Of a stretch of 64,000 nucleotides of DNA, positions 3,059-60,089 are shown one piece after another; the first letter of the stretch is position 1; the number at the start of each line of letters is the position of its first letter. The DNA comes from Bdellovibrionales bacterium (GTDB taxonomy: Bacteria > Bdellovibrionota > Bdellovibrionia > Bdellovibrionales > JAMPXM01), in assembly GCA_043739185.1 (NCBI GenBank), contig JAYUEN010000387.1:27518-91517 (forward strand), read 5' to 3'. Below the pieces are notes generated by a model, which was not told the origin of the DNA, did not search any database, and saw only the letters and a list, made by a program, of their open reading frames with translations. A program made the position numbers and the translations under genes.

Positions 3059-4171
3059 CTAGTTTTTTAAATAAAGGACGGCATTTTCTGCGGGAGACAA
3101 TTCAGGGTCTGATATATGTTTAAAGGCCTCTTCGAGCTGTCCGCTTCTAAATGCACTAATAATTGCGGGATCAATATAAGAATTAAGAGCAACTGACGGC
3201 GTATTGTGAAGGCGCTCAGAGGCCTTTACAGCTGCGAGCTTTATGGCCTCATCTTGATTAGGCTCCTCTTGTGGGCCAAGAGAATGTAGCGTTTCAACGG
3301 CTTGAGTCGTTCCGACCCAAGTGCGAAAATCCTTGGCAGAGAATTGCGTTCCAATATGGTTTTTAATGTACTGATTAACCTCAGGTGCTTTTACGTCAAA
3401 CAGCCTTTCATCCGATCCTTTGGTGCTAACTTGGCCCTTCAAAACGCGGGCAATTGCTTTGTCATCGACGATGATATCTTGGGGAATTCCCTCTTTGGCA
3501 ATGAATTGAAAGCGCACTTTGGCTCCGCGAATTTGAACATGGTCCGCGCGCAAAGTTGTTAACCCAAAGGAAGGAAATTCGCCTTGGGCGTATTTTTCTC
3601 CGCCAATGCGAATTCCGCCAACTTCAAGCAATCGAACGACCGCTGCAATTTGTGAGTCCTGAAAACGCGCTGAACCTTGCAAATCTCGAGAAACAGCAAT
3701 TCGTAGTTTTGAAATAGCCTCTCCAAATTCCTTCATTCTCTCAAATTTAGCGGCGGCAAGTACCTTTTCATTCCAGTCCTCATGGTATCGATATTGTGCG
3801 CGAGCACGGCTATCTAGGGCCCTTGCCTGAATATGGGCAAGCGGGTCTTGAGCAATCCAAACTTGCGAATATCCGGGTGGAATTTTCAGTTCATTGATTC
3901 GTCTCAGGGTACTTGGATCTTGAACCACTTCACCTTGGTCAGTTTTATAAATAAAACTAACTTTATCTTCGGGCTTCGGCTGAGCAGCATTTTCGCGAAT
4001 ATAGCCTTTCCCGGGTGTCAACGAGTAGTGTAGACCTGAGGCCAAAGCCAATTGAACTGAGATCTCATGTTTGCTTAGGCTTTTAAATAGTGAAAGACAA
4101 GCGACGGGTGAGGCGAAACTCACCTGGCCAGAAAACACTAAGAGAAGGCTTAGAAATAAAAAACTTCGCAT
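3059..4171 (-). CDS. Bacterial type IB DNA topoisomerase with N-terminal signal peptide (start re-assigned to ATG 4171)
   Basis: IPPGYSQVWI, HIQARALDSRARAQYRYH, GIRIG, FIAKEG, SAKDFRTW, LHNTPSVALNSYIDP (catalytic Tyr). The longer ORF overlaps dbpA; Met94 begins a signal peptide. Confidence 0.9.
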   Translation of the reverse strand: MRSFLFLSLLLVFSGQVSFASPVACLSLFKSLSKHEISVQLALASGLHYSLTPGKGYIRENAAQPKPEDKVSFIYKTDQGEVVQDPSTLRRINELKIPPGYSQVWIAQDPLAHIQARALDSRARAQYRYHEDWNEKVLAAAKFERMKEFGEAISKLRIAVSRDLQGSARFQDSQIAAVVRLLEVGGIRIGGEKYAQGEFPSFGLTTLRADHVQIRGAKVRFQFIAKEGIPQDIIVDDKAIARVLKGQVSTKGSDERLFDVKAPEVNQYIKNHIGTQFSAKDFRTWVGTTQAVETLHSLGPQEEPNQDEAIKLAAVKASERLHNTPSVALNSYIDPAIISAFRSGQLEEAFKHISDPELSPAENAVLYLKN

Positions 4172-4184
4172 GATAAAGCCTGTT

Positions 4185-4200
4185 TGCGATCTCGATGCCA
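4185..4200 (-). promoter_or_regulatory. Putative sigma-54 promoter for topoisomerase IB
   Basis: TGGCATCGAGATCGCA (GG-N10-GC) just upstream of ATG 4171. Confidence 0.55.
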
Positions 4201-4370
4201 AAGGAGAGTTAAAATCGGAATCATTATAAAGCAGCGCAGGCCCCCTCGGCTTAAATTTAACTTTTTGTGTGACAAAATTCGTCGCTTGCAAAGATATTTT
4301 TTTCAATTTGGGTTTGCCTCTTCCCAGGTGCCTTTGGTCTTGATAATGATGAGAGTCAAAGAGGCAAACA

Positions 4371-5762
4371 TTGAATTCATCCCTATTTAGTTCCCTTCCT
4401 ATATCTGAAAAAATTTTGAAAGTAGTAGAGGAATTGGGATTTAAAGCCATGACTCCAATTCAAGAGCAGGCTCTGCCAATTTTACTCAGCGGACGCGATC
4501 TCATTGGTCAATCGAAAACAGGAAGTGGCAAGACCGCTGCTTTTGCGATACCGATTTTGCAAAAAATCGATCTTTCAAATCGCAGTCTTCAGGCAATTGT
4601 TATTTGTCCTACCAGAGAATTGAGTACGCAAGTGACGGGTGAATTTCGCAAGCTTGCCCGTAAGTTAGAGGGGCTTCAGGTTTTGAATTTATCGGGTGGA
4701 CAGCCCGCAAGACCGCAAATCGATGCGCTTCGTTTGGGAATTCATATTGCGGTAGGAACTTCAGGTCGAATTCTCGATCTACTCGATCGTAGAGAGCTGG
4801 ATTTTAGGAGCCTTAAAACATTGGTTTTAGATGAAGCGGATAAGCTTCTTGAATTGGGTTTTCAGGATGAAATCTCTGCAATTCTAGAGGCTCCAACGGC
4901 AAAGCGACAGACGCTTTTTATCTCAGCAACTTTTCCGGATGAGATAAAAAGCTTGAGCCTGCAATACCAAAAAAACCCTGTTCATCTTCGCATTGAGGAG
5001 GCGCTTGAAGGCGCAAATCTGATTGAAGAAATTGCCTATGAAGTGGGTGAAGAAGAAAAGTCAGACTTGCTATTACGAGTCTTGCAGCAACATCCCGCAA
5101 AGTCCGTACTTATTTTTTGCAATCAAAAGACCACAGTCGATGAGTTGATTCATTTAATAGAAAAAGACGAAGTGAGTTGTGCGGCATTGCATGGCAATTT
5201 AGAACAACGCGATCGACAACTAGTGATGGCGATGTTTCGTAATGGCAGTTATCGAATTTTAGTGGCGACAGATGTTGCGGCTCGAGGAATTGACATTGAT
5301 CACCTAGATTTGGTGATCAATTATGATTTTCCGATGAATGCAGAGGTTTATATACATCGAATTGGGCGAACCGGAAGGGCGGGTCGCGAGGGCGTTGCCG
5401 TCACCTTGGTAAAGCAGAATGAAGACTTGAAATTATTTGAAATTGAAAAATCTCGAGACAAACGACTCAGTCGTCCCAACTTGGGTTTCAAAAACCAACA
5501 TGGCTTAAGTTCCTACTATCGCGAATCGTCAATGAAAACCCTTTGGATTTCGGGTGGTCGTAAAGACAAGCTAAGACCAGGAGATATTTTAGGGGCCCTG
5601 ACAAGAGAAGGTGCGGGTTTGAAATCTTCAGAAATTGGCAAGATTGATGTCTTTGATAATATGTCCCTCGTGGCAATTGCCAGTAAAGAAGCCGGCCGAG
5701 CATTTGAAGAATTGCGTGTAGGTAAAATTAAGGGCCGAAAATTTCAAGTGCGTTTGATATGA
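4371..5762 (+). CDS. dbpA: ATP-dependent DEAD-box RNA helicase DbpA
   Basis: Q motif, TGSGKT, PTREL, DEAD, SAT, HRIGRTGR, C-terminal GGRKDKLRPGDILGAL RNA-binding domain; TTG start. Confidence 0.93.
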   Translation: MNSSLFSSLPISEKILKVVEELGFKAMTPIQEQALPILLSGRDLIGQSKTGSGKTAAFAIPILQKIDLSNRSLQAIVICPTRELSTQVTGEFRKLARKLEGLQVLNLSGGQPARPQIDALRLGIHIAVGTSGRILDLLDRRELDFRSLKTLVLDEADKLLELGFQDEISAILEAPTAKRQTLFISATFPDEIKSLSLQYQKNPVHLRIEEALEGANLIEEIAYEVGEEEKSDLLLRVLQQHPAKSVLIFCNQKTTVDELIHLIEKDEVSCAALHGNLEQRDRQLVMAMFRNGSYRILVATDVAARGIDIDHLDLVINYDFPMNAEVYIHRIGRTGRAGREGVAVTLVKQNEDLKLFEIEKSRDKRLSRPNLGFKNQHGLSSYYRESSMKTLWISGGRKDKLRPGDILGALTREGAGLKSSEIGKIDVFDNMSLVAIASKEAGRAFEELRVGKIKGRKFQVRLI

Positions 5763-8318: not shown

Positions 8319-8334
8319 AGGCACAGGCTTTGCT
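8319..8334 (+). promoter_or_regulatory. Putative sigma-54 promoter for the C1B peptidase
   Basis: AGGCACAGGCTTTGCT (GG-N10-GC, near consensus). Confidence 0.65.
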
Positions 8335-8454
8335 CAGGTAGCTCTCGACCCATAAAAAAACTGTGTAACTTCGTTACAGATCTTGAATTAAGTGACAATT
8401 CTTGACATCGAAGCTGCGCAATTTGGGTCTAAAATCAATTGGAGGACTTTCCGT

Positions 8455-10017
8455 ATGGTGTTTTCGCAGCAACAATTAAGACTAGTTCAATTCACGTTTG
8501 CAATTGTTCTCTCCTCTAGCTTGGGTGTGAGCATGGCCTTCGCTGGCGGCGACCAATGCGAAAGCATCTTTGTTTCTACAAAGAGCAAAAGACAAATTGG
8601 CGTGAGCGAAGATTTTGTTGCCAAAATGCAGTCTCGTAGGCGCTCTGCTGCAGACAAAATGTTACAAAAATTTACCACGGAGAAGGGTCTTGCAGCACCC
8701 ATGAACACGAGCCCCAAACATGACAATAACTATAGTTTCGAACTCCCGGAAGGTACTATAAAGGATCAGCAAAGGTCAGGCCGTTGTTGGATATTTGCTT
8801 CTCTCACGGCCATTGAAAATTTTTATTTAGGCAAAGGCAATTTAATGCCAGACGCCGAGTTTTCAAGAACCTATCTGCAATTTTTTAATATGCTCGAGCG
8901 TTCAAGCTCGCATTTAGAAAAGGTAATTGATTTAAGAAGAAACTCACAGCGCATTAGCAGCTCTACAATCTTACAAAGGATTGCACCTAAGATCGCGGAC
9001 GGTGGCTATGTTGAAGATATTATCTTTTTAATTAAGAAATACGGCTTGGTCACCACAAGTGCAATGCCCGAAACTCTTAATTCATTGAACACCGACCTAT
9101 TGTTGGCTGAATTGAATTCTTATTTACAAGTTAAAAGTTATGAGATGTGGAATTTGTCTGAAAACTTCGACTCAGAGGCGCGTGCACTTCATGATCGTAT
9201 CGTGAGGGGTCAGGCTGAAAACACCACAAAATATGATAAGGTGAGTTTGCAGGCCCTAAGCGAAGCTCAATTGCAAATATTAGAAGCGAAAAAGGAAGAG
9301 ATATTAGGCGGAGTCTGGTTGATTCTTGAAAAAGCTCTGGGAACACCGCCGAAAACATTCACCGCTAAAGTACCAGTGACCAATCCCAAGACGGGCGTTG
9401 CTCAAACTAAAATTCGCAAATTTGAGCCGCAAAAATTTGTGACCGACTATATGAAATTTAATCCTGAGGATTGGATCAATGTTTCTAATTTGAGAAATCG
9501 TCCTCGTGATCAAGTTTATCAAGTTAAATACCAAGACATGAACCGTGTGATACGAAGACTCAATTTAGATCCGGTACGAATGATGAATTTGGTGAAAGCA
9601 CAATTAAAAGCGGGTATGCCAGTACCGTTCGATTCGAACTTTGGCCCAGGAGTCAATCGCAAGACAGGTGATATGGAGCCTGGAACCGATGACTTAAAGG
9701 GAATGTTTCCTTATAAACAAGGCCAAGCGCCTAGGCGCTTGAGTAAATCAGAATTGGATATTTTAGGAATTTTAACCGCTGATCACGAAACGGTTTTCAT
9801 GGGATATGATCAACCAGAAGGATATGCGAATCCAATAAAGTTCAAGGTTGAAAATTCATGGAGTGATCAATATGGCAACGGCGGGAACTTCAACCTATCG
9901 GCGCAATGGTTTGATTTGTATGTAGACGGGATTATGATTCATAAATCAATGCTATCTCCAGAGGAGCTTGCGATTTTCAATGGCAAGCCTATCATTTTAA
10001 AAGCAACTAATGAGTGA
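8455..10017 (+). CDS. C1B-family cysteine aminopeptidase (PepC/bleomycin hydrolase-like) with signal peptide
   Basis: DQQRSGRCWIFA (Gln, Cys), ADHETV (His), VENSW (Asn); GGAGG RBS before ATG 8455; signal peptide ends AFA. Confidence 0.88.
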   Translation: MVFSQQQLRLVQFTFAIVLSSSLGVSMAFAGGDQCESIFVSTKSKRQIGVSEDFVAKMQSRRRSAADKMLQKFTTEKGLAAPMNTSPKHDNNYSFELPEGTIKDQQRSGRCWIFASLTAIENFYLGKGNLMPDAEFSRTYLQFFNMLERSSSHLEKVIDLRRNSQRISSSTILQRIAPKIADGGYVEDIIFLIKKYGLVTTSAMPETLNSLNTDLLLAELNSYLQVKSYEMWNLSENFDSEARALHDRIVRGQAENTTKYDKVSLQALSEAQLQILEAKKEEILGGVWLILEKALGTPPKTFTAKVPVTNPKTGVAQTKIRKFEPQKFVTDYMKFNPEDWINVSNLRNRPRDQVYQVKYQDMNRVIRRLNLDPVRMMNLVKAQLKAGMPVPFDSNFGPGVNRKTGDMEPGTDDLKGMFPYKQGQAPRRLSKSELDILGILTADHETVFMGYDQPEGYANPIKFKVENSWSDQYGNGGNFNLSAQWFDLYVDGIMIHKSMLSPEELAIFNGKPIILKATNE

Positions 10018-11555: not shown

Positions 11556-14528
11556 ATGAAAAAAGTGCTTTTTCGCATAATGACAGGCCTCTTTAGCTTT
11601 TTATTTGTCCTATTGGTGCTGGTGTATATCGGAGTGAAGTTTCTTGGTACTGAGGAGGGCTCTCGATGGGTATTGACCAAGGCGCAAAAAGTCTTAGCGC
11701 AAAAATTTGCTACCGAGCTACAGTTTTCTGAGGCCCAAATCAGATTGTTTTCAGGCATACATTTTAAAGATTTGAAAATAGATTCAAAATTGAATGGCAA
11801 TCGAATTCAGATTCAAATTTCAAGATTTGATATCGACTACATCATTGAGAATTTTTCTCGAAAAGTCTTGATTGAACGATTGTCAATTGAGCGCCCAAGT
11901 TTTCAGGTGCAATTGAATATAGACGCTTCTCCGAAAGCTAAGCCGCAAGAATTTTCTTCAAAAGAGAATGTGCCGCTTGTAGTGCTTTTAGCAAAATTTT
12001 TAGAATCCCCTCTTGTGAGCGTCACAATGAGGCGATTTGAGCTATCCGAATTTGACCTCGATCTTCACCTAAAGGCTGGTGAGAATAGTTTAACTGCTGT
12101 CATTAAGAATTTAAATATCAGAGCATCTGGCCAGCTTTCCGAAAATCATTTGAGTCTAGAAAGTGAAGTGAAAGCGAACCACGCCAATCATGTGGAGATT
12201 TCAGGCCGAGATAGGCATTTGGCTTTGGATTGGGATTTGAATACAAAAGGCAATATCAAGATTGAAAAGAACGGGCAAAACTGGAGCTATTCAATACCTG
12301 AAAATTTTGTGAATTTTGAATTGCAGAACTTGATTGTACAAATGAGTGAGCTTGAGACACAAACGCAGCTACAGTTACCATGGGTCAAGATTAAGTCTGA
12401 AACAAATTTGCTTGCTGAAACTGAGCACGCCTTTGAATTTGATTCGGGTTCTTTAAAATCTGCACATGATAATTCGCAGATTCAGACAAGCCCCTTTAGC
12501 TTGATAAAGCGTTCTCTAGATCAAGCCATGAGCCTTAAGTTTGGCAGTTATGAGGCTGCCATAACGGCAGAATTAAAGAAAGATGTTGAACTGAATGTGA
12601 AATCCATTTTGCATCAACTTGATTTTCCGTCCCAATTGAATATGCCAATTGATTTGAAGCTAGGTGCTCAGGCTAATATTTCTTTGGATCTTAAACATTT
12701 TGCAGCTCACTTTGCTGCTGGGCTCTCCGAAATTGATTTGTCTTTGGGCCAATTCACCATTGGTAGAAACCAAGCTAAGGATCCTTGGGAGTTGATGGGG
12801 AATGTGCAAATTTTTCTCGATCCAAAGCTGGCAAAAAAAATGAAATCAGGGGCTGAGCTTTCGAAAATGGGTCGTATCGAAATCAATTCGAAATTAAGTG
12901 GTAAGCTTTCAAATGAACAGCGGCTGCATTTGGATACTCAAACTGATATTGCAAAAATTATTTTACCTGTGTCTAAAAAGAGCTTTGCGATTCACATTTC
13001 CTCAGCAAATGATTTTCAGAAATCATCTGCTCCTGATGGGCGCGACTTAGGAGTCGGGGTAAACTCCACTTCAGAGCTAAAGCTTTCAAATCCAGAAATT
13101 GGCGAATGGAAAGTGAATTCAAATTCTGAAGTTCATTTAGACAATTTAAATAAGAAAGAGATTATAGGAAAAATTGAATTGAGCGAACTGAGTGCTGGTG
13201 ATAGCGATTTGTTGCCCGCTAAATTGGTACAGCCTGTAGTAATGTCTCATCATTTGAGTATGAACCAAGAGGATTTAAGCTTCGAGCTAAAAGGCTTAGC
13301 GCCCGCAATTGAAATCACAAAATTAGGAATTCTTGGTGATACGAAATTCAATGTGAATTTAAAGGGTGACCATTTGAGCACTGAGAAAAACTTCAAGATT
13401 CAAGTCGAGATGGATCAGGGCCCATTGAAGCTCAATGTAGTGAATGCGAGTTTGGCAGCAATTCCAATTGCAAGTATGAAGATGAATTTGGCAGCTACAT
13501 TAAAGCAGCAGACGTTGTTCAACCTTGAGAAATTGCAATTTAATTTGAATCAGGATTTGGTGCGGGTGACTGCTGACGGAACTGGTAATTTGAAAACCAA
13601 AGATGTGCAAATTCAAATAAATAACCAAATGAATTTTCCGCGATCTTTACCTGAGCTTTTTGGCCAAAAGGTGACGGGCGAAGTATTAGTTCCCATGAAT
13701 TTTTCGGTTCGGCACGGCAAGGATATTAATATAGACGGGACTGTAGAGTTAAAGAAAATGGGCGTTCAGCACGACGATATTTCGCTTTCTGGCCTCAGCG
13801 GACGTATTCCTTTTTCTGAACATTTAATATTAGAAAAGGATCATATTAGGTTTACAGAATTGGTGACGCAGAATGCTTTTGAGCGAGTGAATTTTGAACG
13901 TCTGCGCCCCTTATTGCAAAGCTCAGAACTTATCACAATTGATAAAATACATTGGCAAGAAAAAGTATATGGTCCACTCGTAGGTTTTTTTTCGATTCGA
14001 CAGAATATGTTTATTCTTCATGAATTTAGTCTCGATTTGGGCTCAGGAAGTATTTATGGCGAAGTGGCCTTTGATGCTTATCCTAAAAACCTTCAATTGG
14101 GTCTGCTTTCTCGCGTTACCGGGCTCGATTTAGCTCAGGTTTTGCCGCGGAAGTTTTTAAAGAAAATACCTGAGGGCGACAAAACGATAAGCGCGCGTAC
14201 AGGCTTTGTGTTTTCGCTCAACCGAGCCATTCTTAATGGCCGCATAGATGTAACCCAAATTGGAAGTGCCCAGATGATAACGCTAATCAATTTATTGGAC
14301 CCACAGTTTCAAGATGATAAAATGAATAAAATGAGAACACTCTTAGAAGTGGGTTATCCCACCGCAGTAGCGATGAATTTTAATCAAGGTTTTTTAGATT
14401 TGGATTTGGATTTGACTGCACTTGGTATTAATCAGCACCAGGCTTTGCGATCTATTCCTCTATCTGGATTTTTATTAAAGCCAACTGCAGAAATTGTTTC
14501 TGCAAGTCAGAAAGGACCCCTCAAATGA
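11556..14528 (+). CDS. Large AsmA/YdbH/TamB-like envelope protein
   Basis: One N-terminal TM anchor (…FLGTEEGSRWVL), then ~950 aa of alternating hydrophobic beta-strand pattern. Confidence 0.6.
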   Translation: MKKVLFRIMTGLFSFLFVLLVLVYIGVKFLGTEEGSRWVLTKAQKVLAQKFATELQFSEAQIRLFSGIHFKDLKIDSKLNGNRIQIQISRFDIDYIIENFSRKVLIERLSIERPSFQVQLNIDASPKAKPQEFSSKENVPLVVLLAKFLESPLVSVTMRRFELSEFDLDLHLKAGENSLTAVIKNLNIRASGQLSENHLSLESEVKANHANHVEISGRDRHLALDWDLNTKGNIKIEKNGQNWSYSIPENFVNFELQNLIVQMSELETQTQLQLPWVKIKSETNLLAETEHAFEFDSGSLKSAHDNSQIQTSPFSLIKRSLDQAMSLKFGSYEAAITAELKKDVELNVKSILHQLDFPSQLNMPIDLKLGAQANISLDLKHFAAHFAAGLSEIDLSLGQFTIGRNQAKDPWELMGNVQIFLDPKLAKKMKSGAELSKMGRIEINSKLSGKLSNEQRLHLDTQTDIAKIILPVSKKSFAIHISSANDFQKSSAPDGRDLGVGVNSTSELKLSNPEIGEWKVNSNSEVHLDNLNKKEIIGKIELSELSAGDSDLLPAKLVQPVVMSHHLSMNQEDLSFELKGLAPAIEITKLGILGDTKFNVNLKGDHLSTEKNFKIQVEMDQGPLKLNVVNASLAAIPIASMKMNLAATLKQQTLFNLEKLQFNLNQDLVRVTADGTGNLKTKDVQIQINNQMNFPRSLPELFGQKVTGEVLVPMNFSVRHGKDINIDGTVELKKMGVQHDDISLSGLSGRIPFSEHLILEKDHIRFTELVTQNAFERVNFERLRPLLQSSELITIDKIHWQEKVYGPLVGFFSIRQNMFILHEFSLDLGSGSIYGEVAFDAYPKNLQLGLLSRVTGLDLAQVLPRKFLKKIPEGDKTISARTGFVFSLNRAILNGRIDVTQIGSAQMITLINLLDPQFQDDKMNKMRTLLEVGYPTAVAMNFNQGFLDLDLDLTALGINQHQALRSIPLSGFLLKPTAEIVSASQKGPLK

Positions 14529-14818
14529 AATATCTAAAAATCTTTGGCGCGCTAATGAGTTTGGGCATTCTCGGTAGTCTGTTTGGTTGTGCGCCGCAAA
14601 TTTATGTGGTCGACCGCCAAAGTGTATTCGAGCAGGAATCGGCAGGTGAGTGGCCACAGTTTGAACAAGAAGTCTTGGGGAAATCGGTTGCGACCGGTGC
14701 CGAGCCATTTGCGAAGATTCCTATCACCAATAAAAAGGCCCGTCTTTACAAAGTTCTCAATGGTGAACTCGTAGCTTTACCTGAAAAGCCAACTTCGAAC
14801 AAAGTGGATAAAAAATGA
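14525..14818 (+). CDS. Small lipoprotein (possibly YnbE/DUF1318-like partner)
   Basis: LFGC lipobox; ATGA overlaps with both neighbours. Confidence 0.7.
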   Translation: MKYLKIFGALMSLGILGSLFGCAPQIYVVDRQSVFEQESAGEWPQFEQEVLGKSVATGAEPFAKIPITNKKARLYKVLNGELVALPEKPTSNKVDKK

Positions 14819-17800
14819 TGAAGATCTTCTTAGTTGGCATTTTACTATTTGCAGGCAAGGTTCAAGCGACAATAGTTTCGGATCGAATCGCGGCAACGAA
14901 TCGGCTGCTGCCTTTGAAAAAAGTAACGGTCGGTCCTGATGACCAATATCATGGGTCTGTCGATACCAAAGGGGAGATTTTAGTCTATACATACAAGACA
15001 AATTTGGTGCCGCACCTGCGTGTGCAAGAACTAAAGAGCGGTGACGTTCGGGATTTTTTACCACTTACCGCAGACTCGCAGGAGCCGAGCATCGGACCAA
15101 GTGGCTTGGTCGCATTTACCTATTTTAAATTCAATGCAAAGGGAGATATCTGTTACGCCGGATTGCCAAACTTCGCAAAGCCTGCCAATAACAATCCCGA
15201 AATTCATTGTCTCGCCCGTACCTCAAGCGAAAAGTTCGAAGCCAGATCAAATTCATTTTGGAAATCAAACGACGAAATTGGCTACGTTGTCGACGCGATA
15301 GGTGAAAATCCACGTCGGATTGTTACAGAAAATATTCACACAGGAAATAAGACAATACTCACATCAGGGAAAATATACTCTCCCAATATGCAGGCCGGCG
15401 GACATTATTTAACTTTTATAAAAATGGACAAAGATGAGTCCGTATCCAAATCAAATGTAAATCGTGAAATCGTTTTGTTGGACCTTGTAAATCGCAAAGA
15501 ATTCAGTTTGCGATTTGCACTTCCCGGAATTTCAGGCTTTCCAGCCTTATCGGCTGATGAGTCGATGCTTTATTTTAGCCACTATCCGAACGATTCAAAT
15601 GGTGACAATATTCTTGATGGCAGCGACAACGGAGTCATCTTTCGCATTCCGGTTTCAAAAATATTTAGTAATCAAGATAAGGATCTGATTTTTCCTGAGC
15701 AGCTCACTTCTCTCGAGAGCAGTTGTAGTTTTCCTCACCCATTTAAAGATTCGGTTTATTTGACCTGTGCCTTTGAAGGAAGTCTCGATATCTATCAGAT
15801 GCCTGCCAGTGGAATTGTTCCGGTCAATTGGTCGAGACAAATACTTGATAATGCTTTGATCACCAGTCGCAGTTATCAGGAGCGTATCTTAAATCTCAAT
15901 ACTGAGAAATATAGATTTTCAGAAACCAAACAAATAACAAATGAGCGGCTATTAAATAATCATATTTTAGCAGATGAAACGGCGGCCGCGCGTAGTTATT
16001 TAGATGAGATAATGAAAACTAAGCTTGGCGCAAATGAAAAGTCATTTTATGCGCTAGTAAAAATCTATTTGGAATCGCGCGAACTAAAGAAAATGCAAGC
16101 ATCCTCTGATGTGACCAGGATCTTTAGAGGTCAAATAGCGCAATTTGAACATCAAGTTGCGAGTATAAAATCAGAGGCGAGTTTTAATTTGATTCTTCGG
16201 GGTCTCCTCAAGCTCTATACTGAAGACTTTCACGAGGCTGCAAATTTTTTAGCACAGGTTCGTGCGGCTTCTCAAATGAAGCCGCTGGAGCGTTATTTGT
16301 ATTTTGAATTGGCAGATCAAAGTCTTTCACGTGAACTACCTAAAAGCGAAGCTAAGCTATTAGATGCATATCATATCATGATGACGGCACCTGAGCTCGA
16401 TGAAGAGGCGCATATTTACTACGCCTTTCGTCTCCTAGATAAAATTGAACAGCAGCACAAAGAACTTCCCGAAAGAATTAAGGTCATTGACACTGCCAAA
16501 AAATTTCTTGTTAAGCCAGTCCTCACTTTACTTGATTCTGAAACTTGTGTCCTTCGATTAATTCTTGCGGGTGATTCTGAAAAGCCGAAAGTTTATTCTG
16601 AGCTCGATCGCTTTATGAGCGAAACAAGAGAAGATTATTTTTTGAGAAAAGCTCTTTATGTACGCGCGATACTCAACTTCACGACGGCTGCGCAATTTAC
16701 TTATATGGATTTGGTGGCGACTGCATGGTTAAAGTATACTACGCAAAAAGATACAGAGTTTATCTATGCGCGTGAAGTGGTACAGGGTTCGGCACTTGAC
16801 CAAGCCTATGCAAATGTAGCGGTGGCAAATGACAATTTTGCGAGTAGTTTCTTTTATGAATCTTTAAGCTTAACCGACGATCTAGAGTCGCATTACGGTT
16901 TTGTCCAATCAATGAACCGCAGAAATTTGCGTAGCACCATTGATGATCGATACAAGAATCTCGTACAAAGATCATTTATTGACGACAATTTTAAGTTTGT
17001 TCAGGCCTTGCTTATTCTGATCGATCAAAATACTCATGCTCAAGCGGACCGGCATCTCACGGCACATTTAGATCAGGCAATTGAAAAACTGGTGGCGATG
17101 TCGCAAGATCGGGACTCGCCGGCGCGCTATTTATTGCTTGGTTCTTGTTATCTTGAAAAGCTCTTAAGAACCGCAAAGGGTCTTGAGTTTTCAGCAGAGC
17201 TTTTGCAGAAAGCCAATCGCACTCTGATGTTGGCATATGATTTGGGTCGAGATAATGTTCGTATTCAAGCAGCAACTTTAATGAACCTTGGGATTTTACA
17301 AGCTCGGGTTCAAAACCAAGGGCTCGCAGTTCGTTTTTTTAAAGAGCGTAAAACTCTTGGTTTTGTTTCTGCTGTTGAGAAGGCAGCCTTTGAATGGAGC
17401 TACGCACGCGCTTTATTTTTGAGCCATCAACCTGAGTTAGCGGCAGAAGAATTAACTGAAGTAGCAGCAAGTGAAATGAAGCCGGCATTATTAGAGCGCA
17501 AGGCCTTTTATTTGATGTCTGCACAAAAATATGATCGAGCTGTTCTGGCTTATGAAGAACTATTCAAAGCTAAACCACAAATTGATGCTATTAGTTTCGC
17601 AAAAATAAACCTCAGTCTTGGCTTTGCGCTTTTGAAAAACCAACAAGAAAAAGAAGCCAAAAATCATCTTGTGCAAGCTGTTCAGTCGTTAGACAGGCTT
17701 GCTGTTTTGGGTCGTGGCGCCGAGCGTTCAGTTGAGTTCAATCCCAATAGATTGAAGGCATTTGCCTATGGCTTTCTAGCTCAAATCGGAAATCCAAATG

Positions 17801-18333
17801 AACGTAAAGATGCACTTCTTAAACGTTATGCGCTCCTAGAACAAAGCTCAAATCTGGTTGAGGATCAGCTCAATGTCATGATTCAAGCAAGACTTCAATT
17901 GGCTAAGCTTACAACTACTGAGCTAAACGAGAAAAGCCAATATCTCAGAGAAGCAGTAAGTTTAAGTGAAAAACTAGCCAAGGAAAGTGGATATTTGTCG
18001 CACGCCATTTACCAATCAAGTGTTGCAGCTTTGATTGAAGGATTTTTGCACCCTAAGATGTTTACAGATTCAGAATCAAAAAGCATCGTCGCCTTGGTTC
18101 AGAGTTGTATGCATTCATATGAAAGTCAGAAGATCTCCCAAGCTTTTTTGAACTTTCAAAATCTCAAGCTTAAAGTTTTAGAGGCCGCCTATAGTGCGAT
18201 ACTCAATCATCGAGCCTCCTCAAAGGATGAGATTAAAGCACTTATGTCTGCTCCGTTAGCAATGAATGTAAAAGAAGGTCTTCCTAAAGAATGGGAAAAT
18301 ATGACAAAGCTAAGCGCAGCCCTTAGTTATTAG
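14815..18333 (+). CDS. Exported protein with TolB/PD40-like beta-propeller and helical TPR-like region
   Basis: Signal peptide; SQEPSIGPSG, SGFPALSADESMLYFS, GSLDIY repeats; DSNGDNILDGSD Ca-binding-like loop; helical C-terminal two-thirds. Confidence 0.7.
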   Translation: MMKIFLVGILLFAGKVQATIVSDRIAATNRLLPLKKVTVGPDDQYHGSVDTKGEILVYTYKTNLVPHLRVQELKSGDVRDFLPLTADSQEPSIGPSGLVAFTYFKFNAKGDICYAGLPNFAKPANNNPEIHCLARTSSEKFEARSNSFWKSNDEIGYVVDAIGENPRRIVTENIHTGNKTILTSGKIYSPNMQAGGHYLTFIKMDKDESVSKSNVNREIVLLDLVNRKEFSLRFALPGISGFPALSADESMLYFSHYPNDSNGDNILDGSDNGVIFRIPVSKIFSNQDKDLIFPEQLTSLESSCSFPHPFKDSVYLTCAFEGSLDIYQMPASGIVPVNWSRQILDNALITSRSYQERILNLNTEKYRFSETKQITNERLLNNHILADETAAARSYLDEIMKTKLGANEKSFYALVKIYLESRELKKMQASSDVTRIFRGQIAQFEHQVASIKSEASFNLILRGLLKLYTEDFHEAANFLAQVRAASQMKPLERYLYFELADQSLSRELPKSEAKLLDAYHIMMTAPELDEEAHIYYAFRLLDKIEQQHKELPERIKVIDTAKKFLVKPVLTLLDSETCVLRLILAGDSEKPKVYSELDRFMSETREDYFLRKALYVRAILNFTTAAQFTYMDLVATAWLKYTTQKDTEFIYAREVVQGSALDQAYANVAVANDNFASSFFYESLSLTDDLESHYGFVQSMNRRNLRSTIDDRYKNLVQRSFIDDNFKFVQALLILIDQNTHAQADRHLTAHLDQAIEKLVAMSQDRDSPARYLLLGSCYLEKLLRTAKGLEFSAELLQKANRTLMLAYDLGRDNVRIQAATLMNLGILQARVQNQGLAVRFFKERKTLGFVSAVEKAAFEWSYARALFLSHQPELAAEELTEVAASEMKPALLERKAFYLMSAQKYDRAVLAYEELFKAKPQIDAISFAKINLSLGFALLKNQQEKEAKNHLVQAVQSLDRLAVLGRGAERSVEFNPNRLKAFAYGFLAQIGNPNERKDALLKRYALLEQSSNLVEDQLNVMIQARLQLAKLTTTELNEKSQYLREAVSLSEKLAKESGYLSHAIYQSSVAALIEGFLHPKMFTDSESKSIVALVQSCMHSYESQKISQAFLNFQNLKLKVLEAAYSAILNHRASSKDEIKALMSAPLAMNVKEGLPKEWENMTKLSAALSY

Positions 18334-26713: not shown

Positions 26714-26774
26714 ACAGCATTTGCACCCGAAAAATATTTGAGAATGGGTGGCCTTGATGGGCAATCGATTGAGA

Positions 26775-29072
26775 ATGTATTTAAATTTTAAACTTTTTGC
26801 ACTTCGTCTTCTGATCGGAGTTTTTTGTATGCTTTTCAAAAGTATGGCCTTTGCGACCATAACAATTCACGAAATTAAAGCCAATGAAGATATACAAACT
26901 TATTTAAATAGAACTGCGGGTAACGTTGATGCCACTTCCTTTCGCCAAATCTTAGGCGCTGCTTCAGATTTTAAAGAAGGCGATGAGAGTATTGGTCTGA
27001 GTGCTCATGATGAGGTTTCGCGCCAAAGAGCAAGACAGTTGCTCGCAAACACGAAGGTCCTTGCATTAGTTGAAAGTTCATACCTCGGCTCAGATTCGCA
27101 AGAGCAAATGATTCGCTCTTCAATAGACACCCCAATTTATAAATCGTTGCGGGATAAAAGCGTAGGCGAACTCAAAAGCTTTTTGCTGGGGGCTTCTGAG
27201 TTCGAGATCAAGAAAATCATGCCGGGACTTCACAGTGATGTAATTGCAGCGCTTGTAAAACTTATGTCAAATGAAGAGCTCATACAAATTGGACAGAAAG
27301 TTTTCAATCCATTGCCAAATAGTTCGATCGGAAAAAAAGGATATTTAAGTGCACGGCTTCAACCCAACTCCTCGACCGATCATCCTGGTGACATTCGCTG
27401 GCAGGTTTTCAATGGCTGGGCATTTGGCGTTGGGGACCTCATGTTGGGAAGCAATCCGGCTTCAAGTACCCCTGAAATTGTTCATCGGACGGAATTGCTT
27501 TTAAAAGACCTCGTCGAAAGCTTTGGCCTACGAGACGTACTTCCTTGGACAGTGCTTTCACATATAGATATTCAAAATACTGTTGAGCAAAAAGATCCGG
27601 GCAGTACGCGATTGTGGTTTCAAAGTATTGCTGGGAACGATGAGACCAATGCTGTTTTTGGAACTTCAGCCGCCAGCTTGATGGAGTATGCAAGAAAGCG
27701 AAAGGGCCAAAATTTTGGTTTGTACCTCGAGGCAGGACAAGGATCGGAAGTTACCAACGGGCACAGCAATGGACTTGATATGGGCACTCTCGAATCACGA
27801 AAGTACGGCTTGGCGCGGGCTTTAAAACACGCCCAAGGTGGAGAAAAATCTTGGATGGTAGTTAACGACGTCGCAGGATTTATCGGGCCTGAAGTCTTTC
27901 GTAGCAAAGAGCAGCTGGTTCGAGTGGCGCTCGAAGATACGGTAATGGGAAAATTGCATGGCCTGACAATGGGGCTAGATATTTGCTCGACCTTTCATAT
28001 GCCAATTACTCCAAAGGATTTACGCTGGGCAATTGATCACATCATGCCGGCCAATCCGGCCTATTTGATGGCGTTGCCAACGCACAATGATCCCATGCTG
28101 AGTTACAACACGACGCCCTTTCAAGAGCATTTAAGAATTCGCCAGAAGTTTAAATACAAATATGATGAAAGAATGAAAGCGTTTTTTATTAGATTGGGAA
28201 TAATCGATATTGGCGGAGAGCCAACGGAGCACTTTGGTGATCCAATTTGGGTTTACTATCAATATCAAAAAACTCGTGGTGTAACTCAGAGTTATTCTGA
28301 ATTTAAAAAACGGGCAGAAATTGAAATGCAAGAAGTGCAAAGACGTGGAGTGGCTTTATCGATTGGCTTTGGCAAAAATGTTTGGGATTTTAATGCAGAC
28401 CTTGATCGTTCACTTGAAGCTTTAGATGCAGCTGCCAGAGCCAGCATTCATGCCCCGTTAAATGCTGATTTCTTAACGAAATACTTTCCGAACTCCTTGC
28501 AATTGAATACTCAATCTGAAAATCGCGATCAATATTTGTCGAAGCCAATTTCGGGTGAGACTTTGTCCGAATTTTCGAAGGCGCAACTCTTGAAATTAAA
28601 TATCGGATCAAGTGATGTCATTCTGGTCATTTCGGATGGACTCAATTCAGATTCACTGATGGATGCAGGACATTTAGAGCCCTATCTCCAAGAGTTGAAA
28701 TTGCAATTGCAGAATCGCGGGCTCAAAATTCATCCTGATCCGATAATTGTTCACAATGCCAGAGTGCGAGTTTCCTATCGCATTGGTGAAGAACTATTTG
28801 CTCATTTCACTCAGACGGATCAAATCAAGTCTGTGATCAATATTGTCGGGGAGCGTCCCGGTAACGGGCACAATACTTATTCGGCATATCTTGCAACGGC
28901 AAGCGTGAGTGCATGGAAAGAAAAAAATCATGACCATGATCGCACCGAACTCGTATCTGGAATTTCAGATACATCTCTTGAGCCAAGACAAGCGGCTCAA
29001 GACAGTGTCGAGAAGATATTACTCAAAACTCAATTCATTCTCGGTAAGCAATGCATCGCTTTGTTCAACTGA
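26775..29072 (+). CDS. eutB-eutC: Fused ethanolamine ammonia-lyase (EutB-EutC) with predicted signal peptide
   Basis: EutB motifs ARLQPN, EAGQGS, VAGFIGPE, EDTVMGKLHGLTMGLDICST; EutC motifs ISDGL, ARVR, VGERPG; N-terminus ends AFA. Confidence 0.85.
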   Translation: MYLNFKLFALRLLIGVFCMLFKSMAFATITIHEIKANEDIQTYLNRTAGNVDATSFRQILGAASDFKEGDESIGLSAHDEVSRQRARQLLANTKVLALVESSYLGSDSQEQMIRSSIDTPIYKSLRDKSVGELKSFLLGASEFEIKKIMPGLHSDVIAALVKLMSNEELIQIGQKVFNPLPNSSIGKKGYLSARLQPNSSTDHPGDIRWQVFNGWAFGVGDLMLGSNPASSTPEIVHRTELLLKDLVESFGLRDVLPWTVLSHIDIQNTVEQKDPGSTRLWFQSIAGNDETNAVFGTSAASLMEYARKRKGQNFGLYLEAGQGSEVTNGHSNGLDMGTLESRKYGLARALKHAQGGEKSWMVVNDVAGFIGPEVFRSKEQLVRVALEDTVMGKLHGLTMGLDICSTFHMPITPKDLRWAIDHIMPANPAYLMALPTHNDPMLSYNTTPFQEHLRIRQKFKYKYDERMKAFFIRLGIIDIGGEPTEHFGDPIWVYYQYQKTRGVTQSYSEFKKRAEIEMQEVQRRGVALSIGFGKNVWDFNADLDRSLEALDAAARASIHAPLNADFLTKYFPNSLQLNTQSENRDQYLSKPISGETLSEFSKAQLLKLNIGSSDVILVISDGLNSDSLMDAGHLEPYLQELKLQLQNRGLKIHPDPIIVHNARVRVSYRIGEELFAHFTQTDQIKSVINIVGERPGNGHNTYSAYLATASVSAWKEKNHDHDRTELVSGISDTSLEPRQAAQDSVEKILLKTQFILGKQCIALFN

Positions 29073-33551: not shown

Positions 33552-34631
33552 TTAGTTCTGCATTTCCTCAAGTAACTTCTTCAATATTAAGTTCTGTTGC
33601 TCATCCGTTACTAAGTGTAACTTGTCACTATTGGCTTTGGCACGGATGGCAATTGCATCGAGTAGCGAAGCAAGGCGAATGCCTCCGGTAATGAGTTGTG
33701 ACTCAATGACTGACTTCACATTTTTAGTCACATAATCAGTTGGTAATACCTGGGCATCGGAGTCAGCAAGAGTGGTCGCTGAAGATTCTCCAAGCGTTCC
33801 CTTGGTTTGGTCTGAATACCAACGGCAATAGCTTCGTTTTCGATAAGCCTGGGGATCGCCATTTAAATTGTCTGGGTAGATGCTCTCACGTAGTTGTGCT
33901 GAGGAGTCAAGCCAGCCACTCACTCTTTGCCCCAAGTCTTTTGAAAAACTAATGTCGTCGCTTGTGTTTAGAGTAATTTTACTTGCATTGAATTTATCTG
34001 TGGCTTTGGCCTTCATAGCGGAAATAAATTGTGGGTAATAGCTTAGTGGTTTGGTATTGTTATCTGCTTTATAGGTTTCGCCCAATTTTAGTACGAGTTC
34101 AGTATCCCAAAATGAATGAAAATTGAGGGGCTTACTTTTTTCGTTTAATTTTATGCGGCACTCATTGCCGCCGCGATCATAGCCATTGCCAACGTGTAAA
34201 GGTTGGTGAATGTCGCCTACAATATGAATCAAATATCGAAGTGCTATGAGCTTTTCTTCAGGTGTACTTTCATTAGCTTGAATCAATATTTTACTTGCAC
34301 CAACTATGGCGCCATAGGCGTCTTTAGGATCTTTATTGGGTCTATTGGCAAATGTAAATCCTGTAGGAATTTCTGAAAAATGAAAGGGAGCAAAATCAGA
34401 ATCTCGACTTGAAAAGCGGGCGTCGTCGCGGACGTGGTCCGGCCAATTCGCGGCAACTGCCACAGGCTCTATGCCTAAAATGCCGCGTACAAAGTCTTTG
34501 GTCTCAGCTTGCATGCGCTCTTCAGCCACAGCCCCAACAATTTGATGGCCGAGATCTCCCCAGGCCAAAGCTGAATTTATTTTTAGCAAAGTCAAAGTCA
34601 GGATAAAAACAATTTTCATAGAATTCTCCAT
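33552..34631 (-). CDS. Secreted S1/P1 nuclease
   Basis: ALA|WGDLGH, WPDHVR, HIVGDIHQPLH, DRGGN, HSFWD zinc motifs. Confidence 0.93.
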   Translation of the reverse strand: MENSMKIVFILTLTLLKINSALAWGDLGHQIVGAVAEERMQAETKDFVRGILGIEPVAVAANWPDHVRDDARFSSRDSDFAPFHFSEIPTGFTFANRPNKDPKDAYGAIVGASKILIQANESTPEEKLIALRYLIHIVGDIHQPLHVGNGYDRGGNECRIKLNEKSKPLNFHSFWDTELVLKLGETYKADNNTKPLSYYPQFISAMKAKATDKFNASKITLNTSDDISFSKDLGQRVSGWLDSSAQLRESIYPDNLNGDPQAYRKRSYCRWYSDQTKGTLGESSATTLADSDAQVLPTDYVTKNVKSVIESQLITGGIRLASLLDAIAIRAKANSDKLHLVTDEQQNLILKKLLEEMQN

Positions 34632-34790: not shown

Positions 34791-34806
34791 TGGCAGATGA
34801 CTTGCA
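34791..34806 (+). promoter_or_regulatory. Putative sigma-54 promoter
   Basis: TGGCAGATGACTTGCA (GG-N10-GC, near consensus). Confidence 0.65.
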
Positions 34807-34846: not shown

Positions 34847-36085
34847 ATGCTCAGGATTTTTGCCATTCCAATTGTAATATTAGTAGTGGGTTGCGCCGGC
34901 GGAGGTTCTTCGTCGTCTGTTACGAGTATCGACAAACCAAATATCCCAGGTAATAACGAAGGCACACCGCCGATTTCTCCCCAAACTTCTCGCGAAAAAC
35001 CCGAGACTATCGAAAAGCCAAAAATTATTACTGAGATGGAGAATCTAGGATTCAGTGTAAGACTAGATGCTAAAGACAAAGATGGATCTCAGGCGGCCCA
35101 ATTGATTGAGGCGGTGAAATCAGACTTGCTCAATCATCATGAGCTTTTTTCGAAAATTGGATTTAATGATTATTTCGAATATGACCCAATTAAGTTAGAG
35201 CTTCATTTGTCTCACGATTTTGATTCGAACCGAATTGAAATGCGGACAATTCTTGAAATGAGCGAATTTGGCAAGGCCCTGGGAAATATCACAATTGCTA
35301 CGCCTGCACTTTATCCGCATATGGCCTGGCCCAAATTGAAAGCCAAAATTGAGCCATACAAAGACAAAATTAAATCAAGAGCGAAATATATACGCCACAT
35401 TGAAACCTTTAATATTTCAGATCAATATTACCCTATGACAAGACTTCTTGCCGTCAATGAAGAATGGGATTCATCCTACCTTGAAACCGCCCTGAAAGAA
35501 GTTGACCAAAGTAAATTCTTTTTGGATCAGTTGCCAAATATTCGCTTGAATATCAATCGCGGCGCTATGAGTTTAAACTACGATCAAAGCTATGAAAGTT
35601 TGCAATTGCTTACCCCATCGCTAAATTTATTGGGCCAGACTATGACAAAGTTTGAAATTGAGAGTCTCGGAATTGAAGATTCAATTGGTCTCAACTGCAA
35701 ATTTCACCTTAGTGAAGCGCGAAGAGAAGTGCGGATTTTTGCATTTACTAGTGAAAACATCAAAGACAATTCATGCTCAGTTTCAGAGTTGGTAAAGCGC
35801 ATTGCCACCGACCTTGAAATTGAAAAGGAACTAAAGCTTAAAATCAGCGAAGAATATATGACTTCATCTTCGTCGATCAATCTCGGGCCATCAGCTGAAG
35901 GCTTGAAAATAATCGAGTCCCTTAAGAAAATTTTGGCTGAACGAAAAGACAAATTCAAAGAGGTGCGAATTTCAGACCACTTTCACAGCGAAGAAGTCTG
36001 TGAGCTAAAGCGCGACGTCTTAAGTATCACAAAGCATGCTTTTGATTTGGCTGCTACGAAAGCATGTATTCAAAAGCTTCAGTAG
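34847..36085 (+). CDS. Hypothetical lipoprotein
   Basis: VVGC lipobox followed by GGGSSS linker; 412-aa ORF. Confidence 0.75.
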   Translation: MLRIFAIPIVILVVGCAGGGSSSSVTSIDKPNIPGNNEGTPPISPQTSREKPETIEKPKIITEMENLGFSVRLDAKDKDGSQAAQLIEAVKSDLLNHHELFSKIGFNDYFEYDPIKLELHLSHDFDSNRIEMRTILEMSEFGKALGNITIATPALYPHMAWPKLKAKIEPYKDKIKSRAKYIRHIETFNISDQYYPMTRLLAVNEEWDSSYLETALKEVDQSKFFLDQLPNIRLNINRGAMSLNYDQSYESLQLLTPSLNLLGQTMTKFEIESLGIEDSIGLNCKFHLSEARREVRIFAFTSENIKDNSCSVSELVKRIATDLEIEKELKLKISEEYMTSSSSINLGPSAEGLKIIESLKKILAERKDKFKEVRISDHFHSEEVCELKRDVLSITKHAFDLAATKACIQKLQ

Positions 36086-60073: not shown

Positions 60074-60089
60074 TGGAACAGCTTTTGCT
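60074..60089 (+). promoter_or_regulatory. Putative sigma-54 promoter
   Basis: TGGAACAGCTTTTGCT (GG-N10-GC). Confidence 0.6.

Follow-up and report, generated by a model that had tools for sequence, protein, structure and literature searches.

A gene at positions 3059..4171 on the reverse strand of a 64,000-nucleotide stretch of DNA from a Bdellovibrionales bacterium (the whole stretch analyzed here, hereafter the window) is predicted to encode a type IB DNA topoisomerase (TopIB) that leaves the cytoplasm in which it is made. As judged from sequence comparison, the protein belongs to a monophyletic TopIB subfamily characterized by a signal peptide, an invariant Cys early in the mature chain and an almost Cys-free body, and export of this subfamily is well supported in silico. 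The reading that we favor, and consider rather probable, is that a Sec-exported, signal-cleaved TopIB would act on DNA outside the cytoplasm of its producer, either that of prey or extracellular DNA. An earlier note on the window, made from the sequence alone, had proposed an exported enzyme acting on such DNA, possibly together with a secreted S1/P1 nuclease; its export component is sustained in silico by the conserved signal and by Cys depletion, whereas the link to the nuclease is not (see below).

The identity of the enzyme is established by several lines of in silico evidence. The coding sequence comprises 370 codons plus a stop codon at 3059-3061 and lies in a frame (3059..4450, reverse strand) that is open across 463 codons; the frames of orthologs fix its start at the Met at 4171 (see below), from which the 370-residue product begins with MRSFLFLSLLLVFSGQVSFA, reading on as MRSFLFLSLLLVFSGQVSFASPVAC. 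Pfam recognizes the bacterial TopIB N-terminal domain at residues 73-117 (3821..3955, reverse strand; PF21338, 1.3e-15, 57.2 bits against a cut-off of 27) and the catalytic core at residues 140-327 (3191..3754, reverse strand; PF01028, 4.1e-29, 102 bits against a cut-off of 23.7), the latter being also supported by alignment to the structure 2f4q, while an NCBIfam search returned no matching model. The closest solved structure is 2f4q itself, the TopIB of Deinococcus radiodurans (6e-39 over query residues 67-351), followed by the variola and vaccinia enzymes. In the pairwise alignment, R188 (3608-3610), K226 (3494-3496), R283 (3323-3325), N323 (3203-3205) and Y332 (3176..3178, aligned to the Tyr of ...RGSY...), all encoded on the reverse strand, match the catalytic Arg/Lys/Arg/Asn/Tyr of 2f4q, residues whose roles we take to be those described for the Deinococcus and vaccinia enzymes. 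The earlier note had regarded the catalytic residues as intact in the motifs GIRIG, FIAKEG, KDFR and HNTPSVALNSY, and the pentad indeed sits on those motifs and is invariant in an alignment of 24 sequences. In line with these results, an AlphaFold2 (AF2) model built from 24 homologs has a mean pLDDT of 90.7 and is uncertain only at residues 1-30, and the top 22 Foldseek matches of this model are all TopIB structures of bacterial, poxviral or eukaryotic origin. Matches to the bacterial and variola enzymes range from 1e-13 to 5e-19, with TM scores of up to 0.77 when normalized to target length, and they describe a C-shaped, two-domain clamp fold (2f4q at 4.9e-19; 3igc at a target-normalized TM of 0.77). 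Since the Pfam domains, the 2f4q match, the aligned pentad, the AF2 model and Foldseek agree, the window protein is, by sequence and predicted structure, a bacterial type IB topoisomerase with an intact active site. It is encoded by the only TopIB gene of its genome. The stretch is present in four DNA runs of one sediment-metagenome study, and no RNA run is among the runs listed as containing it.

The N-terminus of this protein departs from that of an ordinary topoisomerase. Residues 1-20 (4112..4171, reverse strand) read as a signal peptide that, by our own heuristic, fits the Sec/signal peptidase I design, with an n-region consisting of MR, an h-region of 11 residues (SFLFLSLLLVF) and a c-region (SGQVSFA) that places Ser at -3 and Ala at -1, so that cleavage is predicted between A20 and S21 (VSFA/SP). 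The sole Cys of the protein, Cys25 (4097..4099, reverse strand), would be residue 5 of the mature chain. The same design is common to 61 homologs, which were found in a single alignment of 298 TopIB sequences assembled from a word-indexed search, a HMMER scan of 1.84 billion representatives and the open frames of related genomes, leaving out fragments and two giant fusions. A signal was scored as a hydrophobic 11-mer with a Kyte-Doolittle mean of at least 2.0 ahead of the conserved GL(H)Y block. Such an 11-mer is present in 63 of the 298 proteins, 61 of them signal-like on inspection (the exceptions being P0221 and L099); among the remaining 235, 192 lack the stretch and 43 have an N-terminus too short to judge. 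A Cys follows the hydrophobic segment in all 61 signal-bearing proteins (59 were found by script within 25 residues; P0124 and L113 were added by inspection), 53 have an n-region with a net positive charge, 56 have a small-residue -3/-1 site after the h-core and ahead of the Cys, and the polar c-region spans 5-15 residues. Likewise, both Cys25 and the catalytic pentad are invariant in the 24-member alignment, whose members were chosen for a hydrophobic N-terminus and share 30-52% identity with the window protein. As the signal design and the Cys persist at this level of identity, the N-terminal region appears to be translated and under selection. The earlier note had suggested aligning homologs to see whether the signal is conserved within a clade; a Sec-type signal indeed occurs in 61 of the 298 proteins, and these form one clade.

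Two other kinds of signal were considered and rejected. Lipoprotein processing by signal peptidase II would require a lipobox ([LVI][ASTVI][GAS]C) immediately following the h-region, and the Cys of the window protein stands in P-V-A-C, located 11 residues past the h-core; among the 61 proteins, charged or bulky residues frequently precede the Cys directly (R in 7, D in 5, K in 3, E in 1 and L in 7), so that no lipobox is discernible. A Tat signal was discarded on the grounds that the n-region is merely M-R and the twin-arginine motif is missing. By its sequence, the signal peptide is most likely removed by signal peptidase I after Ala20. Left uncleaved, it would instead act as a signal anchor, tethering TopIB to the inner membrane so that the enzyme faces the periplasm and meets incoming DNA, e.g., during uptake, with the conserved Cys just outside the membrane. 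A positive n-region followed by a hydrophobic helix gives this N-in/C-out topology whether it is cleaved or not, AF2 draws residues 2-28 as a single helix (with low confidence), and the Cys depletion described below would fit an anchored enzyme equally well. Yet a short h-core such as that of the window protein (about 11 residues) typifies cleaved signals and not membrane anchors, and both the -3/-1 site found in 56 of 61 proteins between core and Cys and the polar c-region of 5-15 residues speak for cleavage, making a permanent anchor quite unlikely. Regarding the Cys itself, an intramolecular disulfide is excluded because Cys25 is the only Cys of the protein; possible roles are an intermolecular disulfide, be it within a dimer or as a tether to a partner, or a modification. 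A homodimer prediction with two copies of the mature chain (residues 21-370) scored 0.00, which speaks neither for nor against a Cys-linked dimer.

The signal is visible only if translation starts at the proper codon. The frame stays open for 93 codons upstream of the Met at 4171, and the public gene call begins at a TTG 45 codons upstream of this Met, yielding 415 residues and burying the hydrophobic stretch as an internal segment. The open frame of the ortholog reaches no more than 11 codons upstream of the equivalent Met in G002, a genome of the same genus (N-terminus MRKFAFLIILLLSISSLVHAGQLSCESLF), and 10 codons in G028, which belongs to the same order but to another family (MIKSNFILGVFAAFSLALGTAQGSVSCEYLF). 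Since these ortholog frames open just upstream of the same Met, the start at 4171 is not an artefact. As the earlier note had pointed out, no further Met precedes the conserved domain; the next Met is residue 146. Two starts farther upstream were rejected: the extension implied by the public TTG is not conserved among orthologs, and neither is that implied by an ATG at 4450, which would additionally overlap the divergent gene for the DbpA helicase that starts at 4371. The problem is not confined to the window, as the public calls P0002, P0003 and P0007 (the window gene, extended over 4171-4306 on the reverse strand, and two homologs) begin 35-65 codons too far upstream, thereby rendering the signal internal and hiding it from automated predictors. 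This case illustrates that mis-called starts can conceal signal peptides from automated annotation.

A start located downstream of the hydrophobic stretch, or the production of two isoforms, would result in a cytoplasmic enzyme whose hydrophobic stretch is either untranslated or a cytoplasmic membrane tether. In-frame non-ATG starts do exist within the protein (GTG at V12 and V17; TTG at L41, L43 and L51), of which V12, V17, L41 and L43 are the candidates, and initiation at L41 or L43 would sit near the GLHY block, 10-25 residues upstream of which signal-less TopIBs begin. Additionally, one ortholog (in genome G003, see below) has just such a short form, the use of yet another start in the public 415-residue call shows that gene callers have difficulty in placing the start, and the gene is the sole TopIB gene of its genome. 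Nevertheless, the signal and the Cys are kept throughout the clade, in which identity to the window protein is only 30-52%, no conservation is seen in the upstream extensions, and Cys depletion of the body would be unexpected in the cytoplasm, given that the signal-less TopIBs of the phylum hold 3-8 Cys. We therefore deem a cytoplasmic enzyme very improbable.

The phylogeny of the family and the Cys content of its members lend further support to export. Trees were built only from alignment columns downstream of the GLHY anchor and are thus independent of the signal, the N-terminus having been excluded. A FastTree run on 293 rows (five near-duplicates left out), which included rows with short N-termini and truncated clade members, recovered a clade of 60 tips (local support 54) that contains 54 of the 56 signal-bearing rows, the whole tree requiring 6 changes of signal state; the other six tips of this clade comprise the G003 gene and gene calls with a truncated N-terminus or a wrong start. 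A quick IQ-TREE run under LG+G4, with the 56 signal-bearing and 45 random signal-less rows, required 1 change, at a split with an SH-aLRT of 99, in a set that left out near-duplicates, rows with short N-termini and four truncated clade members and hence favors a clean result. Downstream of the anchor, signal-bearing TopIBs contain no Cys in 46 of 61 cases, one in 13 and two in 2, whereas the 194 signal-less TopIBs mostly contain 3-5 and only 5 of them have none. Within the phylum of the window the two types do not overlap, with 0-1 Cys in 11 of 11 signal-bearing loci versus 3-8 in 18 of 18 signal-less loci. Loss of unpaired Cys is expected for a protein that folds in the oxidizing periplasm or outside the cell, and we know of no reason for such a loss in a cytoplasmic enzyme. 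Thus, the Cys-poor body can be taken as a mark of export that is independent of the signal. One genome, G194, encodes both types, one TopIB that has 5 Cys and no signal and another that combines a signal with a Cys-free body (loci L097 and L118), as would be expected if the two types do different jobs.

A single close relative departs from this pattern. In G003, the third genome of the genus, synteny is kept, with DbpA upstream and a 205-residue protein downstream of TopIB, and yet the TopIB frame opens six codons before ...LHYS, with neither signal nor conserved Cys. The sequence TTGAAAAAAATAT, which in G000 and G002 lies well upstream of the start, joins the LHYS codons almost directly in G003. 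Hence a deletion of about 250 nt at the 5' side (L003, 1372-1520) has removed promoter-proximal DNA, the signal and the Cys, leaving the rest of the gene and both neighbors intact. Because the deletion lies in kept synteny and the body of the G003 protein is Cys-free, the gene appears to be a truncated descendant of an exported enzyme rather than an ancestral form. The earlier note had held that close homologs lacking the extension would speak against export; one such homolog was found, among two same-genus orthologs, and it is accounted for by truncation.

In an even sample of 401 genomes of Bdellovibrionota, the phylum to which the periplasmic predators belong, TopIB of any type was found in 23, with 24 of the 25 TopIB loci read (the 25th being a C-terminal fragment). 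The signal-bearing type is present in 10 of these 23 genomes (G000, G028, G161, G190, G194, G206, G240, G278, G359 and G412), which belong to four family codes, and the signal-less type in 14, with G194 having both; a search for relatives added two more genomes with the signal type, G002 and G040. Bdellovibrionota sequences are spread across the whole signal clade, its deepest branch included. In Myxococcota, TopIB occurs in 12 of 251 genomes, and no signal was found in the 11 loci read; these include one from a genome that is flagged as unpublished, and the 12th locus is fragmentary. For other phyla, loci found by a pattern common to all TopIBs served as a control: among the matches listed, none of 80 loci of named genomes has a convincing signal, and all 80 have at least 2 Cys in the body. 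Marginal hydrophobic stretches in the upstream open frame of 3 of the 80 were judged not to be signals. Accordingly, the signal clade is found in Bdellovibrionota among the genomes searched, a statement that does not amount to a restriction to this phylum, as the clade also contains metagenomic members for which a profile search of the protein collection, a cluster look-up and the ESM Atlas returned no taxonomy.

Upstream of the gene, a sigma-54-type -24/-12 motif, TGGCATcgagaTCGCA, is located at 4185..4200 on the reverse strand, 13 nt before the ATG, and shows the GG-N10-GC spacing of sigma-54 promoters with 2 mismatches to what we take to be the consensus, TGGCAC-N5-TTGCW. Matches of such quality number 43 in the window against 37 +/- 6 in shuffled sequences, i.e., they are at chance level. 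However, when the 80 nt ahead of the start were compared across 8 signal-bearing loci, the same design appeared in 4 (G000, G002, G028 and G040) from two families, as cGGCATcaagtTCGCA in G002 (GG at -29), TGGCATggagtCTGCA in G028 (GG at -26) and TGGCATgggccGTGCA in G040 (GG at -41); the other 4 loci, from two further families, lack it within the same 80 nt. By our own estimate, eight fixed bases within a 45-nt stretch are expected in about one locus per thousand, which makes recurrence by chance in two lineages unlikely. RpoN is encoded in the genome of the window. The earlier note had remarked on a sigma-54 motif immediately upstream; its recurrence before orthologs of two families speaks for a promoter, and its chance frequency within the window does not. 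A sigma-54 promoter of the TopIB gene is, on this comparison, probable but unproven. As a separate observation, 3 of the 7 one-mismatch sigma-54 matches in the window are followed, at a distance of 40-75 nt and on the correct strand (forward in all three), by a gene start: 8319-8334 precedes a gene for an exported Peptidase_C1_2 protein (8392-10017), 34791-34806 one for an uncharacterized protein of 412 residues (34847-36082), and 60074-60089 one for a hybrid histidine kinase (60164-62332). Sigma-54 promoters may thus be common in this genome.

How an exported topoisomerase could work is suggested by the biochemistry of the family. TopIB enzymes need neither ATP nor a divalent metal and relax supercoils of both signs through a covalent 3'-phosphotyrosyl nick, which places them among the few DNA-topology enzymes able to work outside a cell and makes work on DNA outside the producer's cytoplasm the most likely job of the window protein. 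In the scheme that we propose, translation from the ATG at 4171 would yield a catalytically competent precursor with a Sec signal, signal peptidase I would cut after Ala20, and the mature enzyme would fold in the periplasm or beyond, in an oxidizing compartment, where it would nick, swivel and reseal duplex DNA; we infer the cleavage, the final location and the DNA substrate. The substrate could be the supercoiled chromosome and plasmids of prey within the bdelloplast or, alternatively, extracellular DNA in sediments or biofilms. Relaxed and decompacted prey DNA would be easier to attack for the predator's secreted nucleases, and the loss of supercoiling could by itself disable the prey genome. 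Bdellovibrio bacteriovorus delivers nucleases to the bdelloplast in a defined order and degrades the DNA of its prey completely, first to fragments of intermediate size (PMC7925074).

Export would also be compatible with a job other than relaxation, such as that of a DNA-damaging weapon that leaves covalent TopIB-DNA adducts or breaks on nicked prey DNA, of an extracellular strand-joining or rearranging activity, or of an enzyme cleaving RNA or other phosphodiesters. The case for export is the same for these activities, the conserved active-site residues would be required for phosphoryl transfer of any kind, and enzymes of the TopIB family are able to cleave at ribonucleotides and to become trapped on damaged DNA. 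On the other hand, no sequence feature separates such activities from ordinary relaxation, and the entire two-domain DNA clamp is conserved and confidently modeled, so that we rate them as unlikely. A bolder version of the favored scheme, in which a Bdellovibrio-like topoisomerase is secreted into prey or onto extracellular DNA and relaxes this foreign DNA, with the Cys serving as a disulfide handle for a dimer or a carrier, is possible but doubtful. Were it true, DNA transactions of the prey would be shut down and its nucleoid opened to nucleases without any energy source, and extracellular action, whether for digestion or for attack, would be known from a topoisomerase for the first time.

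Several observations weigh against a Sec-exported TopIB that acts on foreign DNA. A Sec signal delivers a protein to the periplasm only, not across the outer membrane or into prey. TopIB is patchy in the phylum (23 of 401 sampled genomes), and in genus g36 (genomes of 3.3-4.0 Mb, many closed), which is probably Bdellovibrio itself, 1 of 26 genomes has a TopIB and that copy is signal-less; with such a distribution TopIB cannot be core predation machinery. Moreover, the signal has been lost in the G003 ortholog, the comparison of neighbors revealed no operon partner conserved beyond the genus, and transcription from the sigma-54-like motif would, in 3 of the 4 loci that have it, begin just 2-4 nt ahead of the ATG, which is unusual and leaves no Shine-Dalgarno sequence.

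Regarding the neighbors, DbpA and the 205-residue protein were considered as operon partners and rejected, as they are syntenic with TopIB within the genus only. The named close relatives of the DbpA neighbor all belong to Bdellovibrio species, Pseudobdellovibrionaceae or Bdellovibrionaceae (55-61% identity). The 205-residue protein, encoded at 2285-2902 on the reverse strand directly downstream of TopIB, is Cys-rich and has a hydrophobic N-terminus ending in FQNCSQVNF; it is syntenic and 49-53% identical in both other genomes of the genus, keeps FQNCS in all three, has no Pfam or NCBIfam match, and is possibly a lipoprotein whose lipobox is unusual. Family f5 is represented by two genomes (L010, 565-987; L012, 2905-3324), and in each of them a small exported protein of about 140 residues (MK...TLRFK...) adjoins the signal-bearing TopIB; it was not seen beside signal-bearing TopIBs of other families.

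The window also encodes an S1/P1 nuclease (33555-34631, reverse strand), which has its own signal peptide, MKIVFILTLTLLKINSALA, followed by W at the cleavage site. As is predicted for TopIB, this nuclease is exported and acts on nucleic acid. It lies 30 kb from the TopIB gene, and its distribution does not follow that of signal-bearing TopIB: the family is widespread in the phylum (143 of 401 genomes), and half of the sampled genomes with signal-bearing TopIB have it (5 of 10). Given this distance and distribution, the suggestion that TopIB works with the secreted S1/P1 nuclease is rejected. Elsewhere in the window, an open reading frame (ORF) of 774 residues (26748-29069, forward strand) fuses the ethanolamine ammonia-lyase subunits EutB (residues 64-494) and EutC (residues 556-755), and the forward-strand ORFs at 11556-14525 (990 residues) and 14815-18330 (1172 residues) have no Pfam match at 1e-5.

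To our knowledge, all previously described topoisomerases act in the compartment that houses the genome of the cell or virus itself, i.e., in the cytoplasm, the nucleus, organelles or virions. In the literature searched, the coverage of which does not extend to subscription journals, we found no description of a periplasmic, secreted, extracellular or otherwise exported topoisomerase and none linking predatory bacteria with topoisomerase IB, and the word topoisomerase does not appear in the main text of a 2025 predation proteome paper. The subfamily thus raises the possibility that some bacteria manipulate the topology of DNA that is not their own, which, in predators that digest prey from within, would add a new activity to the known secreted nucleases. 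As the enzyme needs no cofactor, this idea is directly testable, and the mature form could additionally serve as a robust, Cys-free, single-chain DNA-relaxing reagent.

Among characterized enzymes, the TopIB of D. radiodurans (2f4q, 3m4a) is the best Foldseek match and shares the two-domain architecture and the pentad of the window protein, including an Asn where the poxvirus and eukaryotic enzymes have a His. However, the Deinococcus enzyme is cytoplasmic and has no signal peptide, whereas the window protein has about 45 extra N-terminal residues, which comprise the signal, the Cys and a linker helix, and has lost every other Cys. Poxvirus TopIBs (variola 2h7f, 2h7g and 3igc; vaccinia 1a41) display the same minimal clamp fold, and the window model superposes best on the DNA-bound variola enzyme (target-normalized TM of 0.74-0.77, rmsd of about 4 Å), although identity is only 17-18% and the viral enzymes are packaged in virions and act inside the host cell without Sec export. 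With respect to function, the nearest counterparts are Bd0934 and Bd3507 of B. bacteriovorus, a member of the same order, two secreted nucleases that bear signal peptides and enter the bdelloplast to process prey DNA (PMC7925074). Their setting is the one proposed here for the window TopIB; they differ from it in being hydrolytic and of unrelated fold, whereas TopIB nicks and reseals, and the B. bacteriovorus-like genomes sampled are mostly without TopIB (1 of 26 in genus g36). Taken together, the enzyme family is a known one, and what appears new from its sequences is the Sec routing, the N-terminal Cys module and the Cys-free body.

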